Source: Candidatus Methylomirabilota bacterium (GTDB lineage Bacteria; Methylomirabilota; Methylomirabilia; Rokubacteriales; CSP1-6). Taken from it: a stretch of DNA of 64,000 bases. This document shows positions 21,098-28,353 of the stretch, one piece after another; the first letter of the stretch is position 1, and each line of letters opens with the position of its first letter. A model generated the notes under the pieces. It saw only the letters and a list, made by a program, of their open reading frames with translations, was not told where the DNA came from and searched no databases. Position numbers and translations under genes: made by a program. The DNA lies in the NCBI GenBank assembly GCA_035457825.1, contig DATIAY010000005.1:2722-66721 (forward strand), read 5' to 3'.

Positions 21098-21994
21098 TCA
21101 GGCCGGGTAGGGCTCTCGCCCCATCGCGATCGTGGCGACCTCGGCTGCGGGAACCGGGGTTTCGACGTGGATCACACCGGCCGCGACGTCGATTCCGCGC
21201 ACGATGCCGAGGCCCAGGGTCACTCGGGTGGGGTCGAGCAACCCGACCAGCGCTCCGTCCAGCACGTGCGCCCCCGGGCCCGGCGCGAGCCGCTCGCCCC
21301 CTGGTCCTCTCACGCACACCCGAGCCGAGGCCAGGACCACCCGGCGCGCCGAGGCGAAGTAGTCGTCGAGCCGCCGCTGCCGGTAGCGACGCCGCTCCTC
21401 GGCGCTGCGGGCCCGGGCCGCCGTGGCGGCAGGAACCCGCATTACCGCGGGCCGCACCGTGGCTGCATAGCCTGCCACGATGTGGTCACACTCCCCCGCC
21501 CGTTCCAGGCAGATCACCAAATCCGGATCCGTCACTTCGATCTTGGCCTGCTTGAGGGTCCGCCCGAGAGGGCCACTGACCAGACCGCTGGTGTCGATGA
21601 CGGCACGCCGGAGCTTTTCCGCGCGGGCCCGGTCCAGCATGCGCCGCGCGCCGACGACCGTGCCGAGCAGATGGCGAGCGGGCGAGGTCACGCCGACGAA
21701 ATGCAGCGCGACGACCTCGGCATCGGCCAGCCGCTCGAGCCGGCGCGGGACCCGGCCGAGCCCGATCGTGGTGGGCGGGCCGATCTCGGACTGGCCCAGG
21801 TCGGCGTCGATTACGGCGACGCCGACACCCCGGGCGACCAGGGTGTTGGCGATGGTGGTCACCAAGGTGGTCTTTCCCGTGTCGGTCTCGCCGATGACCA
21901 TTGTGACCGCGGCCCGCTGGGCTCGCCGGACCGCCTCTTGCCATTCGGGAGGCACGTGAATCGGGTCCACACGCCGCCGCCGAGAGGAGGTCAT
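21098..21994 (-). CDS. Clp1/Grc3-like P-loop polynucleotide 5'-kinase homologue
   Basis: VIGETDTGKTTLVTTIANTLVARGVGVAVIDADLGQSEIGPPTTIG parallels the Clp1 pattern G.TD.GKST........A...G......DLD.GQ....PG. The protein is 298 aa with the P-loop near the N-terminus. Confidence 0.65.
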   Translation of the reverse strand: MTSSRRRRVDPIHVPPEWQEAVRRAQRAAVTMVIGETDTGKTTLVTTIANTLVARGVGVAVIDADLGQSEIGPPTTIGLGRVPRRLERLADAEVVALHFVGVTSPARHLLGTVVGARRMLDRARAEKLRRAVIDTSGLVSGPLGRTLKQAKIEVTDPDLVICLERAGECDHIVAGYAATVRPAVMRVPAATAARARSAEERRRYRQRRLDDYFASARRVVLASARVCVRGPGGERLAPGPGAHVLDGALVGLLDPTRVTLGLGIVRGIDVAAGVIHVETPVPAAEVATIAMGREPYPA

Positions 21995-24502: not shown

Positions 24503-26593
24503 TTACCCCACACTCGCCAGGGCGAGTTTGCCCCGCCACCGGGCGAGGAGCCCCTGGCGCAGGGCCCGGTGCTCGGAGTCGCGAAGCTCGGGATCGGCGG
24601 CGACCAGAGCGGCGGCCTCGCGTCGTGCCTCTTCGAGCAGGGGTGCGTCCCGGAGGAGGTCGGCCACGCGGAATTGGGGCAGGCCCGACTGCCTCGTACC
24701 GAAGAACTCCCCGGGGCCTCGGAGCTGGAGGTCGACCTCGGCGATACGGAAACCATCCTGGGTGGCCACGATGGCGTCGATGCGCCGGCGGGCTTCCTCG
24801 CTGACGTGGCTGGCGTGCAGCAGGATGCAATAGGATTTCCAGGGACCCCGACCGACACGGCCGCGCAACTGGTGGAGCTGAGACAATCCGAACCGCTCGG
24901 CGTGCTCGATCAGCATGACGGCGGCGTTGGGTACGTCGATGCCCACCTCGATGACGGTGGTGGAGACGAGAATGTGGATCTCGCCGGCCTTGAACCGGCG
25001 CATGATGTCCTCCTTGTCTTCGATGCCCAGGCGCCCGTGCAGGAGGCCCACGCTGAGATCGGGAAAGACGTCGCGGGCGAGATGGTGGGCCATGTCGGTC
25101 GCCGCCTTGAGGTCCACTGCCTCCGACTCCTCGATCAGCGGGTAGACGACGTAGACCTGCCGCCCCTCCTTCACCTGCTCGCCCAGGAAGGCGTAGATCT
25201 CGCCTCGTTTGCTCTCCGTCCGGGCCACCGTCTTCACCGGCCGGCGCCCGGGCGGCAGCTCGTCGAGCACGCTCACGTCGAGGTCGCCGTACAGGGTGAG
25301 GGCCAGTGTGCGCGGAATGGGAGTCGCGGTCATCACCAGGAGGTCCGGATGTTCACCCTTGGCGCGAAGCCGCGCCCGCTGGGCGACACCGAAACGGTGC
25401 TGCTCATCAACGACCGCCAGGCCCAACCGCCGAAACTCCACCGCTTCCTGCACGAGAGCGTGCGTGCCCACCACGCAATCCACCCGCCCCGCCGCGGCCT
25501 CCGCGACGCGGGCCGCGCGCTCCCGCGCCTTCACCGACGAGGTCAACAGCGCGACAGTGACCCCAAGCGGCTCCAGCAGCTGGCGCAGCGTCATGAAGTG
25601 CTGCTCGGCCAGAATCTCGGTCGGGGCCATCACCGCCGCCTGATAGCCAGCCTCCACGGCAGTGAGGACGGCCAGCGCGGCCACCACGGTCTTGCCCGAG
25701 CCTACGTCACCCTGGAGCAACCGATGCATGGGCGCGCGCGCGGCCATGTCACGCCGGATGTCTTCCCATACCCGCTCCTGGGCGCCCGTGAGCGACCAGG
25801 GCAGGCTTGCCCGCAGCCGGGCCACCAGCGCGCCCGGGGGGTCCATTGCAATGCCGGGGGCCCGCGCCGTCCTGGACTTGAGGATGGCCAGCCCGAGCTG
25901 GAGGAAGAGAAAATCATCGAAGGCCAGACGCCGCCGGGCTGCCGCCTGGGCCTCTTCCGTCTTCGGGAAGTGTCCGTCGCGGATGGCGGCGGCCAGGGCC
26001 ACCAGGCGGCGCCGGCGGCGCACCGGCTCGGGCAGGATCTCGGCGACGTCGCTGGCGAAGCGTTCCACCAGGCTCCACATGAGCCGGCGCAGGGGCCGCT
26101 GCGTGAGCCCCTCGGTGGTTGAATAGACGGGGACGAGCCGACCGGTGTGCAGACGATCCTCGTCGTCGTGTTCTACGATCTCGAAATCCGGATGCTGAAG
26201 GGTGGTGGCGCCTCGGTAACGGCCGACGCGACCGTGCAGGACCAGTCGTTGGCCGCGTTTGAGGACCCGCCCCAGGTAGGCGGCTTTGAACCAGCTCGCG
26301 GTCACGAAGCCGCTCTCGTCGCGCAGCACGGCCGAGAAGGGCATCCGGGCGCGCCCGGGCGGAGGCGGGCTGAGCCCCACGATGACCCCGGAGCATGTCT
26401 GGGCCTGGCCCGGCTGGAGCTTTTGGAACGGGGTGAGCCGGGTGCGGTCCTCGTGGCGCAGGGGGATGAAGAAGAGGGCATCCTCCACGGTGTGGAGTCC
26501 CTTCTTGGCCAGCAGCGCCGCCCGTCGAGGCCCGACGCCCTTGAGATACTGCAGCGGCGTGGCCAGGGCGGGGCCTCCCGAAGTTTGCGTCAT
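24503..26593 (-). CDS. recG: ATP-dependent DNA helicase RecG
   Basis: 696 aa. L.YLKGVGPRRAALLAKKG..TVEDAL...P (N-terminal), the wedge domain, GDVGSGKT, the DEQHRFGV box and QLHQLRGRVGRG. Confidence 0.95.
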   Translation of the reverse strand: MTQTSGGPALATPLQYLKGVGPRRAALLAKKGLHTVEDALFFIPLRHEDRTRLTPFQKLQPGQAQTCSGVIVGLSPPPPGRARMPFSAVLRDESGFVTASWFKAAYLGRVLKRGQRLVLHGRVGRYRGATTLQHPDFEIVEHDDEDRLHTGRLVPVYSTTEGLTQRPLRRLMWSLVERFASDVAEILPEPVRRRRRLVALAAAIRDGHFPKTEEAQAAARRRLAFDDFLFLQLGLAILKSRTARAPGIAMDPPGALVARLRASLPWSLTGAQERVWEDIRRDMAARAPMHRLLQGDVGSGKTVVAALAVLTAVEAGYQAAVMAPTEILAEQHFMTLRQLLEPLGVTVALLTSSVKARERAARVAEAAAGRVDCVVGTHALVQEAVEFRRLGLAVVDEQHRFGVAQRARLRAKGEHPDLLVMTATPIPRTLALTLYGDLDVSVLDELPPGRRPVKTVARTESKRGEIYAFLGEQVKEGRQVYVVYPLIEESEAVDLKAATDMAHHLARDVFPDLSVGLLHGRLGIEDKEDIMRRFKAGEIHILVSTTVIEVGIDVPNAAVMLIEHAERFGLSQLHQLRGRVGRGPWKSYCILLHASHVSEEARRRIDAIVATQDGFRIAEVDLQLRGPGEFFGTRQSGLPQFRVADLLRDAPLLEEARREAAALVAADPELRDSEHRALRQGLLARWRGKLALASVG

Positions 26594-26657
26594 CCCGGGG
26601 GCCGTGCTATAAGCAAGGTCCGCCCCACGCGAACCCGTTCATACCGAAGGAGTGAGC

Positions 26658-26849
26658 ATGGCCCAGCGGTGCGACATCTGCGGGAAGGGCCCCGCGGTCG
26701 GAAACAGCATCAGCCACGCCCACAAGCTTACGCGGAGGCGCTGGCTGCCGAACCTGGTCTCGATGCGGGCCCTCGTCGCCGGTAAGCCGCAGCGTCTCCG
26801 CGTTTGCACCCGCTGTCTCAAGGCGGGAAAGGTCACCAAGGCTATTTAA
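26658..26849 (+). CDS. rpmB: 50S ribosomal protein L28
   Basis: [33 protein letters not shown] is the canonical bL28 N-terminus. SD GAAGGAG lies upstream. The track ORF starts 6 nt earlier. Confidence 0.95.
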
Positions 26850-26865
26850 GCACCGACGGCACAAC

Positions 26866-26888
26866 GGGAGGGGGCGAAGCCCCCTCCC
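26866..26888. terminator. Perfect 10-bp GC hairpin after rpmB (probable bidirectional terminator with the convergent micro-ORF unit)
   Basis: GGGAGGGGGC-GAA-GCCCCCTCCC lies 17 nt after the rpmB stop, with only a weak T run (CCTTT) after it. A second GC hairpin follows at about 26902-26925. Confidence 0.5.
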
Positions 26889-26937
26889 GGTCCTTTGGCA
26901 AGGTGGGAGGCCGCCACCCCCCACCCGGGGAACGACG

Positions 26938-26976
26938 CTACTTCTTCTTTTTGCCGGCCTTCTTCTTCTTGGCCAT
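26938..26976 (-). CDS. 12-codon poly-lysine micro-ORF 2 (MAKKKKAGKKKK)
   Basis: Minus strand: GAGAGGAGGTGAgaacttaATG GCC AAG AAG AAG AAG GCC GGC AAA AAG AAG AAG TAG. The SD is near-consensus with 7-nt spacing. It is below the ORF-track size cutoff. Confidence 0.35.
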   Translation of the reverse strand: MAKKKKAGKKKK

Positions 26977-27026
26977 TAAGTTCTCACCTCCTCTCGTCGG
27001 GGCATTGCTTCGAGCCGCTGTCGGCT

Positions 27027-27065
27027 CTACTTCTTCTTCTTCTTGGCCGCCTTCTTCTTGGCCAT
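27027..27065 (-). CDS. 12-codon poly-lysine micro-ORF 1 (MAKKKAAKKKKK)
   Basis: Minus strand: GGAAGGGGGGTGAacgcatccATG GCC AAG AAG AAG GCG GCC AAG AAG AAG AAG AAG TAG. It starts 28 nt after the stop of the 349-aa gene. Its stop is immediately followed by the hairpin GAGCCG-ACAG-CGGCTC (27012-27027). Confidence 0.35.
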   Translation of the reverse strand: MAKKKAAKKKKK

Positions 27066-27093
27066 GGATGCGTTCACCCCCCTTCCTTCGCCT

Positions 27094-28143
27094 TCAGTAG
27101 CCCATCGCTTCGCGGCGCAGGTGCTCAGCCTGCTCGACTCCTTTGCGCTCGTAGTGCAGGAGATCGACGTAGAGCTGCGGAAGGCAAACCACCTTGAGGC
27201 CAGCCTTCTCCAGTGCTCCGTGGAAGACGCCGGGATCATAGGGCGTGAGCAGGTGCAGCCCGCCTTCCCCTTCCGTCGTGGACCGCAGCCCGAGGGCGAC
27301 AGCCACGGGGGCGGGATCGCCCTCCAGATAGCAGTGCACGGCCGGGGTCCGCATGTGGGGCGCCACCAGGGAGAGCCCGGCGTTGAGGGAAAAGGCGTAG
27401 CGCTGGCCAGCCGCTGTCGCCGCCCGAGCCACGTCGGCCATGAAGGTGCGGGTGACGCGCGTCGGAACAAAGTAGGAGGAGATCTCGTTCTCGCGATACG
27501 TGTAGGATTCCCCCCAGTTCTCCAGCAGGTCGGCGGGCTTGGCGAGCCGGATGCGTTGCCGATCATCACGGTCGACCCAGGCCAGCTCCTCCAGGCGCTT
27601 GATCACATTGTGGGAGTGGCCGAGACTGACCTCGGCTGCCCGGGCCAACTCCTCCAGCTTCCAGGCGCGTGCCGGGTCGGTAAGGAGGACACGCACGACG
27701 CGGGTGGCCCGGGGGGCAAACAGTGAGCGGAGGGGACGGGTGGACGGCCGGACGTTCCGCTTGCCCTCCTTCTCGATGTGAACGTTCTCCAGGGCGAGAT
27801 AGCAGTTGCCGGACAGGTCGATGTAACCGAGGTTATTGGACTTGAGAATGCGAGCGCTCTGCGGGCCGATGTAGACCGCGGCGGCCATGGGATAGGCCGT
27901 CGGAAGCTCCCTGCGGAGCTCGCTCAGCCTGGTCACCGCCGCCCGAATCTGGCGCGGCTGGCCGAGGGAACACACCTCAAGCACGAGGCAGTGCTCCTGC
28001 TCCCCCAAACGGAAGGTGATCCGCAAGTCCGCGGCCTGATTGCCGGCCCGAACATCCGGCGTCTCCGTCCAGTCCTTCGCCTTTGGGAAGAGCTCGCGGA
28101 GCCGTTGGACCGCCTGCCGTCGAATCTCCCCCGATTTCAGCAT
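27094..28143 (-). CDS. Uncharacterised 349-aa protein with a central winged-HTH; N- and C-terminal domains not confidently assignable
   Basis: Clean 349-aa ORF. The central segment WKLEELARAAEVSLGHSHNVIKRLEELAWVDRD looks like a wHTH. The N-terminal part (..DLRITFRLGEQEHCLVLEVCSLGQP..GYIDLSGNCYL..) is only vaguely nuclease-fold-like. The C-terminal part is vaguely AbiEi-antitoxin-like. Both are weak impressions. Confidence 0.7.
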   Translation of the reverse strand: MLKSGEIRRQAVQRLRELFPKAKDWTETPDVRAGNQAADLRITFRLGEQEHCLVLEVCSLGQPRQIRAAVTRLSELRRELPTAYPMAAAVYIGPQSARILKSNNLGYIDLSGNCYLALENVHIEKEGKRNVRPSTRPLRSLFAPRATRVVRVLLTDPARAWKLEELARAAEVSLGHSHNVIKRLEELAWVDRDDRQRIRLAKPADLLENWGESYTYRENEISSYFVPTRVTRTFMADVARAATAAGQRYAFSLNAGLSLVAPHMRTPAVHCYLEGDPAPVAVALGLRSTTEGEGGLHLLTPYDPGVFHGALEKAGLKVVCLPQLYVDLLHYERKGVEQAEHLRREAMGY

Positions 28144-28162: not shown

Positions 28163-28180
28163 TTTCAGCATCTGCTGAAA
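28163..28180. promoter_or_regulatory. Perfect 8-2-8 palindrome just upstream of the 349-aa gene
   Basis: TTTCAGCA-TC-TGCTGAAA lies 20 nt from the start codon (28143) in an AT-rich spacer. Confidence 0.4.
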
Positions 28181-28301
28181 CCATAAGGACTATTGAAACT
28201 CCCTGTCAAGAGGAAACTTATAGCCCTCTCCTAGAACAGTGGACAGGTCAGACCTGCACCTGGCATCACCGAGTGGGGGTCGCTGGCTCCTGATTGATTC
28301 C

Positions 28302-28327
28302 AAAAAAGAACTATATTGTTCTTTTTT
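28302..28327. promoter_or_regulatory. Perfect 10-6-10 AT-rich palindrome upstream of the HxlR gene
   Basis: AAAAAAGAAC-TATATT-GTTCTTTTTT lies 27 nt upstream of the HxlR ATG. The loop is -10-like (TATATT). It could be an operator or a weak bidirectional terminator-like hairpin. Confidence 0.4.
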
Positions 28328-28353
28328 AGAACTCACCGTACGCTGGGCCCACC

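Follow-up and report, generated by a model that had tools for sequence, protein, structure and literature searches.

Genes and features at the locus

The window analyzed here is a 64-kb stretch of DNA (68.5% G+C) from a Candidatus Methylomirabilota bacterium (contig DATIAY010000005.1), on the minus strand of which two tandem open reading frames (ORFs) specify very short peptides composed largely of lysine. Polylysine micro-ORFs of 10–14 codons are referred to as K-ORFs; locus A designates those located 3′ of a gene for a 349-residue protein, and locus C a K-ORF located 3′ of a phosphoribosyltransferase (PRTase) gene. In the general unit, a strong Shine-Dalgarno (SD) sequence precedes the start codon of a frame that encodes M(A)KKK and KKKK(K), separated by one or two small residues, and that ends in a stop codon. 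A preliminary description of the window had reported two tandem 12-codon polylysine ORFs, each with its own strong SD, and had read both their sequence and their position correctly.

On the minus strand the first cistron is the 349-residue gene (27094–28143; TGA stop at 27096–27094), which is of the AbiEi_2 winged-helix family. It is followed by the SD of K-ORF1, GGGGGGTGA (27074–27082, 8 nt from the ATG), and by K-ORF1 itself (27027–27065), which encodes MAKKKAAKKKKK through the codons ATG GCC AAG AAG AAG GCG GCC (AAG)5 TAG. A second SD, GGAGGTGA (26984–26991), is found 7 nt from the ATG of K-ORF2 (26938–26976), the product of which, MAKKKKAGKKKK, is specified by ATG GCC (AAG)4 GCC GGC AAA AAG AAG AAG TAG. 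Between the two ORFs is a small hairpin, GAGCCG-ACAG-CGGCTC (27012–27027), which is not conserved in sequence, different small hairpins being present at that place in other loci. Two further hairpins lie 3′ of K-ORF2, all on the same strand: HP1 (GGTGGGGGGTGGCGGCCTCCCACC, 26902–26925), which possesses a 10-bp stem and a tetraloop, has no U-tail, and is unique in the window; and HP2 (CGGGAGGGGGC-TTC-GCCCCCTCCCG, 26865–26889, or to 26857 with its U-rich tail), the 11-bp GC stem of which abuts the stop codon of rpmB.

The rpmB gene is convergent with the K-ORFs, its stop being at 26849. The gene order on the minus strand is queA, tgt, secD, secF, relA/spoT, a zincin-like gene, a 263-residue gene, the 349-residue gene, and the K-ORFs; past them are rpmB (opposite strand), recG, and rsmD. 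The earlier statement that nothing lies downstream on the K-ORF strand needs correction, because recG (24503–26593) is found on it beyond the convergent rpmB. A consensus scan of the window revealed no internal promoter for the locus A K-ORFs.

Coding status and conservation of the K-ORFs

The tract AAGAAGAAG occurs seven times in the window, always within the two K-ORFs; the mean in shuffled sequence is 0.08, and seven copies were reached in 0 of 100 shuffles. The arrangement GGTGA-N4-9-ATGGCCAAGAAGAAG occurs twice, compared with 0.00 in the shuffles, and neither strand of the 64-kb stretch contains a further ORF of 5–40 codons with at least 40% Lys. These counts and the conservation presented below lead us to reject a chance origin, which the preliminary description had also considered unlikely. 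A dispersed or repetitive extragenic palindromic-like element is rejected as well, since HP1, HP2, and the lysine runs are unique in the 64 kb. A 180-residue ORF (27027–27569) is merely an alternative frame of the upstream gene that enters K-ORF1, and two opposite-strand ORFs (26804–27100 and 26895–27197) were discarded because they cover unalignable, indel-rich spacers. A search of Rfam with a permissive threshold identified no known RNA family, all that it brought up being sub-threshold noise, and there was no match among viral contigs.

For comparative analysis, 38 species-representative loci were fetched via the 349-residue protein which, together with the window, gave a set of 39; since the K-ORFs played no part in the search, they do not bias this set. 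Metagenome contigs, scanned for an exact pattern, yielded at least 120 stretches, a subset biased by the search pattern, and the statistics therefore rest on the 72 ORFs of the unbiased set. At least one unit, SD plus start plus M(A)KKK[A/T/G/S]0-2KKKK(K/R/G) plus stop, is present in 39 of 39 loci, that is, in the window and beside the 349-residue homologue in all 38 fetched loci. When GTG and TTG starts are allowed besides ATG, two units are found in 33 of the 39; the proximal copy has been lost in one clade, and one contig is cut short. K-ORF1 has an ortholog in 33 of 39 loci, with ATG, GTG, or TTG starts, and also in an out-group, while an ORF at the position of K-ORF2 is present in every complete locus.

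The 72 ORFs, which are 10–13 codons in length, begin with ATG (60), GTG (11), or TTG (1), the start codon being 4–8 nt from GGTGA, and end with TAG (46) or TAA (26) and never with TGA; the stop closes the lysine run directly and in frame in all 72. They represent 27 peptides encoded by 50 distinct DNAs. The MAKKKAAKKKKK peptide alone is specified by seven distinct DNAs in the unbiased set and by 30 overall among the matches listed. Among the same matches there are 268 K-ORFs in 164 of 168 loci, corresponding to 41 peptides and 106 DNAs, again with no TGA stop and with TAA or TAG in frame immediately after the lysine run in 268 of 268; the four loci lacking a K-ORF are classical AbiE pairs. Lysine is encoded across these 106 distinct DNAs, likewise among the matches listed, by AAG (804) or AAA (43), and AAC and AAT never occur in their place. 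The lack of TGA could reflect selection for efficient termination, or it could reflect origin, TAG and TAA being one step from AAG and AAA and TGA not.

Alignment of the loci reveals identities of 0.79–0.97 in the SD and ORF segments, and of 0.28–0.51 in the spacers, which are effectively unalignable. The mean pairwise identity is 0.89 for the SD of K-ORF1, against 0.28–0.42 in the spacers adjoining it, and 0.97 for that of K-ORF2. The same peptides arise from many DNAs that differ only synonymously or in their start and stop codons. Conserved frames, starts, stops, and synonymous change amid unalignable spacers argue for a translated sequence under purifying selection rather than a purine-rich RNA motif, and comparative evidence accordingly shows the K-ORFs to behave as genuine translated micro-genes of the soil phylum Methylomirabilota (Rokubacteria), with a coding sequence under such selection. 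The mini-cistrons of the preliminary description are in this sense borne out: their frames, SDs, starts, and stops are conserved and the surrounding DNA is not, and the reading frames are kept even where the hairpins differ entirely. Nor do the lysine runs ever belong to a longer gene or to a frameshifted one. K-ORF1 lies in each of the three frames with respect to the upstream gene (19, 10, and 4 loci), and it is therefore not an extension of that gene; a C-terminal extension, read-through, or frameshift was rejected on this ground. Counts of differences by codon position between ORFs of equal length are uninformative because they are confounded by register shifts in low-complexity sequence.

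The unit is retained at considerable evolutionary distance. In the out-group, a Methylomirabilota lineage with a 348-residue protein that is 52% identical, the synteny relA, zincin, 348-residue gene, rpmB (opposite strand), recG is kept and there are two units, MAKKKAAKKKK and MAKKKAAKKKKK, each after GGAGGTGA; two hairpins follow, with wholly different sequences. Both ORFs are thus retained where the identity of the neighboring protein is only 51–52%. The tandem copy number at locus A is one, two, or three: lineages at 57–62% identity possess one unit, and one contig (L158) has three in tandem, starting with ATG, GTG, and GTG. Two loci (L029 and L079) carry the 349-residue gene, both ORFs, HP1, and HP2 together, followed by a different downstream gene and without rpmB, from which it follows that the unit travels with the 349-residue gene and not with rpmB.

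Automatic calls of the upstream gene run into or across the K-ORF region in two loci (L044, P0126 of 379 residues; L170, P0282 of 267 residues), and existing annotations therefore hide K-ORFs. Divergent polylysine micro-ORFs are also seen on three unplaced contigs; these ORFs may belong to neither of the two main loci, or may come from beyond the phylum. One of the contigs (L071, 1415–1546, minus strand) carries the tandem pair MAKKKAKGKKKK and MAKKKAKKARPKKK, another (L150) a unit with a classical U-tailed terminator, and the third (L058) MAKKKPTKKKK.

Downstream hairpins

HP1 is found in 114 loci among the matches listed, and 85 of the copies are identical. It exhibits three independent compensatory pair changes and several changes from G-C to G-U, persists where HP2 has been replaced, and is kept down to 57% identity of the neighboring gene. 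To judge from these substitutions HP1 is a selected stem-loop, which could function as a processing or stability element or as a protein-binding site. The arms of HP2 are 0.98–0.99 identical and its loop is variable; more distant lineages have other U-tailed hairpins instead. HP2 and its replacements are likely to constitute the intrinsic terminator of the operon. In minimum free energy (MFE) folds, which do not amount to an exhaustive search for alternatives, the hairpins are independent and the all-purine K-ORF has no pyrimidine pairing partner.

A second, stand-alone locus

Among the matches listed, at least 133 loci are of the locus A type, 126 with the 349-residue homologue upstream and 7 that are cut off upstream but then show rpmB. 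A further set of at least approximately 26, again among those listed, has no 349-residue gene, rpmB, or recG nearby, and represents locus C. The order here is tsaB (opposite strand), a PRTase-family gene, the K-ORF, and then either an EamA transporter gene or convergent nrdR and glyA. Close homologues of this PRTase are also named Rokubacteria or Methylomirabilota, and the locus is present in a named Rokubacteria metagenome-assembled genome (GCA_016188005.1) and on a 522-kb contig. Its promoter is composed of GTATTTT, an AT-rich element that is conserved, then TTGACA, which is invariant, a 17-nt spacer, and TAGAGT or TAGCAT, after which come a leader of approximately 45 nt, GGGAGGGAGGTGA, and the ORF ATG GCG (AAG)3 GCG GCC (AAG)5 TAA. 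This is followed by a variable hairpin and then by an invariant one, CGGCCCTGTCGG-CCCCAT-CCCGGCAGGGCCG.

The possession of its own near-consensus promoter, leader, and hairpins at locus C marks the K-ORF as an autonomous micro-gene. On this evidence of layout it is neither a tail belonging to an upstream gene, nor a partner reserved for the winged-helix protein, nor a leader peptide of the classical kind. The preliminary description had excluded leader peptides; this is right for locus A, but a leader role is conceivable at locus C, where the EamA gene is directly 3′ in about half of the genomes, 64–150 nt past the ORF and with no visible SD. In one such contig (L167, 1840–1900) the EamA ORF begins 14 nt past the second hairpin; the homologous start position in another (L054) is ATC. 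A conserved pyrimidine tail, CCAUCUC, past the hairpin of locus C pairs with the SD of the K-ORF in the MFE fold, no covariation being seen.

Two locus C contigs (L114, oriented 2500–2760; L057, oriented 1590–1640) contain the 3′ arm of HP2 and a truncated rpmB (L28) pseudogene. Such a remnant of the locus A 3′ flank on locus C contigs suggests that the two loci once recombined ectopically in a single genome, and on the basis of taxonomy and this remnant loci A and C would appear to co-occur in a genome.

The AbiEi-type gene and its promoter

The 349-residue protein matches Pfam PF09952 (AbiEi_2) with 26.2 bits (cut-off 21) over residues 199–344, and a homologue (P0121) shows HTH_IclR/MarR matches at residues 146–195. 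NCBI names the homologues "AbiEi family antitoxin." The close homologues, which are 76–96% identical and nearly all exactly 349 residues in length, are named Candidatus Rokubacteria or Methylomirabilota; the gene is part of the syntenic core of the phylum and is constant in length. No sequence relatives were found in PDB. In relatives at 35–40% identity (L042, L043, and L046) an AbiEii-like gene of approximately 300 residues, with weak PF08843 matches (E 0.003–0.0075), is located within 0–45 nt and there is no K-ORF. No AbiEii gene follows the 349-residue gene in any of the Methylomirabilota loci examined. Given the partner in its distant relatives, the Rokubacterial gene is best described as an "orphan" AbiEi-type gene in a housekeeping neighborhood.

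The promoter of the 349-residue gene and K-ORF operon (28180–28209, minus strand) is composed of TTGACA, 18 nt, and TATGGT after a conserved GTAAGTTTT; a consensus scan found one site where 0.1 is expected. This arrangement, with a spacer of 17–18 nt and TAtgGT, is kept in all 41 aligned loci. Directly 3′ of the −10 element is an operator-like perfect palindrome, TTTCAGCA-GA-TGCTGAAA (28163–28180), and a third GCTGAAA half-site is present at 28135–28142, at the start codon. The palindrome, TTTCAGCrGAyGCTGAAA at the −10/+1 region, is also found in all 41 loci, including the 52% out-group; the putative operator of this promoter reads TTTCAGCAGATGCTGAAA. It looks like an autoregulatory operator, which the winged-helix protein would presumably bind. 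Passages in two papers describe AbiEi as an autoregulator acting at promoter inverted repeats (PMC3985639, PMC7319586). Since the conserved palindrome fits autoregulation of that kind, the locus A K-ORFs are probably under the transcriptional control of the 349-residue protein. An AT-rich palindrome of 17+17 nt, TTCCAAAAAAGAACTAT/ATTGTTCTTTTTTAGAA (28298–28331), lies directly 3′ of the 263-residue gene in this 68% GC genome and looks like a bidirectional intrinsic terminator dividing that gene from the 349-residue operon.

The oligolysine peptide as a proposed product

After the initiator Met the 72 ORFs specify 586 K, 144 A, 24 T, 16 G, 6 R, 2 S, and 2 P, with no acidic or bulky residue, and the lysine runs are interrupted only by whole codons for small residues. 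The predicted peptide contains 7–10 lysines and has a mass of approximately 1.25–1.4 kDa. Ordinary proteins of the window contain 10.1% Arg and 3.0% Lys, and the K:R ratio of the K-ORFs is 586:6. Three functional options had been raised in the preliminary description: a polycationic micropeptide, which is still the best of them; a sensor of Lys-tRNA or ribosome stalling, which is a live rival; and a partner of the winged helix-turn-helix protein, which is weakened.

We tentatively favor, at a little short of an even chance, a free oligolysine peptide as the product, a trans-acting polycation whose targets would be polyanions, nucleic acids being the most plausible. The argument is drawn from the variable copy number, the strong promoter and SD, the stable 3′ hairpins, the lack of a fixed downstream gene, and the restriction to Lys and small residues. 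The two tandem K-ORFs are the last cistrons of an operon opened by the AbiEi-type winged-helix gene; a conserved, operator-bearing sigma-70 promoter is predicted to drive the operon, and the transcript to end in HP1 and then in the HP2 terminator. The peptide may act on nucleoid DNA, or on rRNA and ribosomes, and could represent a genetically encoded analogue of protamines or polyamines, the dosage of which would be set via copy number (one to three tandem copies plus the stand-alone copy). The more specific proposal, namely that free oligolysine is a physiological polycation, made on the ribosome and tuned in dosage, which compacts the nucleoid and/or the ribosomes, is rather doubtful.

Several considerations weigh against a peptide product. 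Its existence, accumulation, and binding are predictions, and short unstructured peptides are usually degraded fast. Charge alone fails to explain why the K-ORFs use lysine almost exclusively when the genome otherwise prefers Arg; a function at the level of codons or tRNA would explain this equally well. The conserved linkage of the K-ORFs to the AbiEi-like gene is not accounted for, and the near-invariance of HP1 hints at a function at the RNA level for which the peptide has no need. Finally, the EamA gene directly 3′ of the ORF in about half of the locus C genomes is compatible with a leader role there.

Alternative explanations

A somewhat unlikely but strong rival is a translational sensor of lysine codons, in which the translation of 7–10 AAG codons matters rather than the peptide, ribosomes stalling when charged Lys-tRNA is scarce. 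In cis such stalling would alter either what becomes of the RNA 3′ end or read-through into the genes beyond, which are EamA at locus C and, at locus A, rpmB (in antisense) followed by recG; in trans the ORF would be a "sentinel" producing stalled ribosomes that activate RelA. We retain this explanation because it accounts naturally for the exclusivity of lysine: with a K:R ratio of 586:6 in an Arg-preferring, Lys-poor proteome, ordinary mRNAs would report lysine supply poorly. The relA/spoT gene three genes upstream at locus A, and EamA, without a visible SD, 64–150 nt past the ORF in about half of locus C, are also in its favor. The K-ORFs resemble the his, phe, and thr attenuator leaders (hisL, pheL, thrL) in layout, that is, an SD, 10–20 codons dominated by one amino acid, a stop, and stable hairpins; a leader peptide of Thermus with a lysine cluster is likewise of the attenuator type. 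The SD-led ORF with 7–10 Lys codons out of 10–14 agrees with this. The resemblance ends 3′ of the ORF, where no operon for lysine synthesis or transport is found, genes of lysine biosynthesis being absent among the neighbors; at locus A the K-ORFs are terminal cistrons, with a terminator and a convergent gene beyond them, and at locus C a constant unit is found beside changing downstream neighbors (EamA, convergent nrdR, others). Moreover, no competing terminator and antiterminator were found in the folds, where the hairpins are independent of the purine-only ORF, and tandem arrays with separate SDs, present at multiple loci, are unusual for leaders.

It is quite unlikely that the K-ORFs encode a tiny, stoichiometric, lineage-specific ribosomal or ribosome-associated protein, similar to bL37 (~24 residues), Thx (~26), bS22 (~33), and eL41 (~25) but shorter. 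The likeness resides in tiny size, positive charge, synthesis on the ribosome, a length below gene-caller cut-offs, and strong translation signals including the SD; these proteins bind nucleic acid, as the K-peptides may by analogy. The TAA and TAG stops are typical of highly expressed genes, the locus C promoter has an UP-like element, and the neighborhood at rpmB, with relA and rsmD nearby, is constant. The tiny ribosomal proteins that are known have specific sequences containing both Arg and Lys, whereas the K-peptides are near-pure Lys with Ala, Thr, or Gly; with 10–14 residues, a variable length and copy number, and a homopolymeric character they would be atypical for a defined rRNA pocket. 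At fewer than 20 residues, they are set apart from these families by composition and not by homology search. Parts of the literature note that very small ribosomal proteins were missed until ribosome structures revealed them. The K-ORFs nevertheless lie outside ribosomal operons: they converge on rpmB instead of sharing its transcript, it is to the 349-residue gene that they are linked, the unit is kept without rpmB in L029 and L079, and locus C has no ribosomal neighbors.

A toxin-like effector of the AbiEi-type protein, that is, a growth-arresting polycation controlled or neutralized by it, is very unlikely. AbiE, a type IV toxin-antitoxin system, is described in part of PMC3985639 as bicistronic with an AbiEii (DUF1814) nucleotidyltransferase toxin, and the K-ORFs fill in Rokubacteria the slot that is occupied within 0–45 nt by the ~300-residue AbiEii-like genes of the relatives at 35–40% identity. 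The AbiEi_2 winged-helix gene and the operator-like palindrome are further points of likeness, the latter corresponding, in sequence only, to the promoter inverted repeat noted in passages of PMC7319586 and fitting the autoregulation indicated there and in PMC3985639. Toxicity of positively charged repeat peptides via aberrant phase separation is mentioned in a portion of PMC10028949. Against this, there is no AbiEii nucleotidyltransferase, the 349-residue gene is a fixed-length syntenic core gene and not a mobile toxin-antitoxin module, and the micro-ORF also exists at locus C as a stand-alone copy driven by a near-consensus promoter with no adjacent antitoxin-like gene. The 349-residue protein is itself basic (pI 9.25) and has no acidic patch that could bind a polycation, for which reason an electrostatic partnership with the K-peptides was rejected.

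A conserved non-coding element in which the ORF is incidental, such as an (AAG)n tract binding Hfq or another protein, or the opposite-strand UCACCUCC motifs acting as anti-SD mimics in the rpmB 3′ untranslated region, is most improbable. In its favor, HP1 is under selection as an RNA structure, the (A-R-N)n pattern bound at the Hfq distal face accommodates (AAG)n, and two UCACCUCC motifs can be read on the reverse complement. Against it, the "N" position is G or A only and never C or T (and so is not free as in class II small RNAs), starts are confined to ATG, GTG, or TTG at 4–8 nt past GGTGA, stops are in frame directly after every lysine run, only whole codons for small residues interrupt the runs, the unit persists where rpmB is absent, and no Rfam family matches.

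Comparison with known polycations

For the favored free oligolysine peptide, the closest likeness in composition is to the H1-like nucleoid proteins (Chlamydia Hc1 and Hc2, the C-terminal tail of mycobacterial HupB, and Pseudomonas AlgP), which function in DNA compaction. These share with the K-peptides an alphabet of K, A, and some T, P, or G, even in high-GC organisms (AKKA-type tails), and their Lys/Ala-rich, low-complexity composition is matched by the K-ORFs (K 586, A 144). They are, however, at least 100 residues in length or are tails on a folded DNA-binding domain, whereas the K-peptide would be a free chain of 10–14 residues. Protamines and the adenovirus Mu peptide are short polycations that condense or bind polyanions, but they are rich in Arg and of eukaryotic or viral origin. 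Epsilon-poly-L-lysine is a bacterial lysine polymer, but one that is made by a synthetase, isopeptide-linked, and secreted; the K-peptide would be alpha-linked, made on the ribosome from its own gene, and without an export signal. Modification and export genes of ribosomally synthesized and post-translationally modified peptides or of the microcin C type are absent from the neighborhoods (relA, zincin-like, rpmB, and recG; PRTase, tsaB, nrdR, and glyA), the only candidate exporter being EamA at some examples of locus C. In the searchable literature the peptide strings were absent and no description of these or related concepts was found. Because the K-ORFs lack a defining feature of each system to which they have been likened, and given this literature result, we rate the family as lying outside known kinds of element.

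Rokubacteria cells have been estimated at 0.3–0.4 µm in diameter despite large genomes, and "extensive DNA packaging or dormancy" has been suggested (Becraft et al. 2017, PMC5712423). The K-ORFs are a concrete candidate in relation to the question raised there of very small cells with very large genomes: an oligolysine polycation, if it exists, would help to explain how 6–8 Mb genomes are accommodated in cells of this size, or the entry into dormancy. In that case cells could use the ribosome itself to make a polycation of the polyamine or protamine type, by means of a conserved, multicopy, promoter-equipped gene of 33–45 nt that specifies a near-homopolymer and is invisible to every gene caller. 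K-ORFs of 10–14 codons would then count among the shortest protein-coding genes that are conserved and have a promoter of their own. Were the sensor to prove correct instead, a lysine sentinel ORF located in trans or at the 3′ end would represent a new type of amino acid sensing. A conservation-aware search for ORFs of fewer than 15 codons can recover real genes.

Other observations in the window

The start codons of rpmB and recG are divergent and 58 nt apart (26594–26651), and a promoter-like site for rpmB, TTGCGT-17-TATAAG, was read by eye inside the 5′ end of recG. Elsewhere in this bacterial housekeeping region, a 298-residue protein (21098–21994, minus strand) exhibits a strong Clp1/Grc3-type P-loop match (PF16575, E 2.8e-35), and its C-terminal region is NOL9-like; Clp1/Grc3 is a polynucleotide kinase family typical of eukaryotes and archaea.

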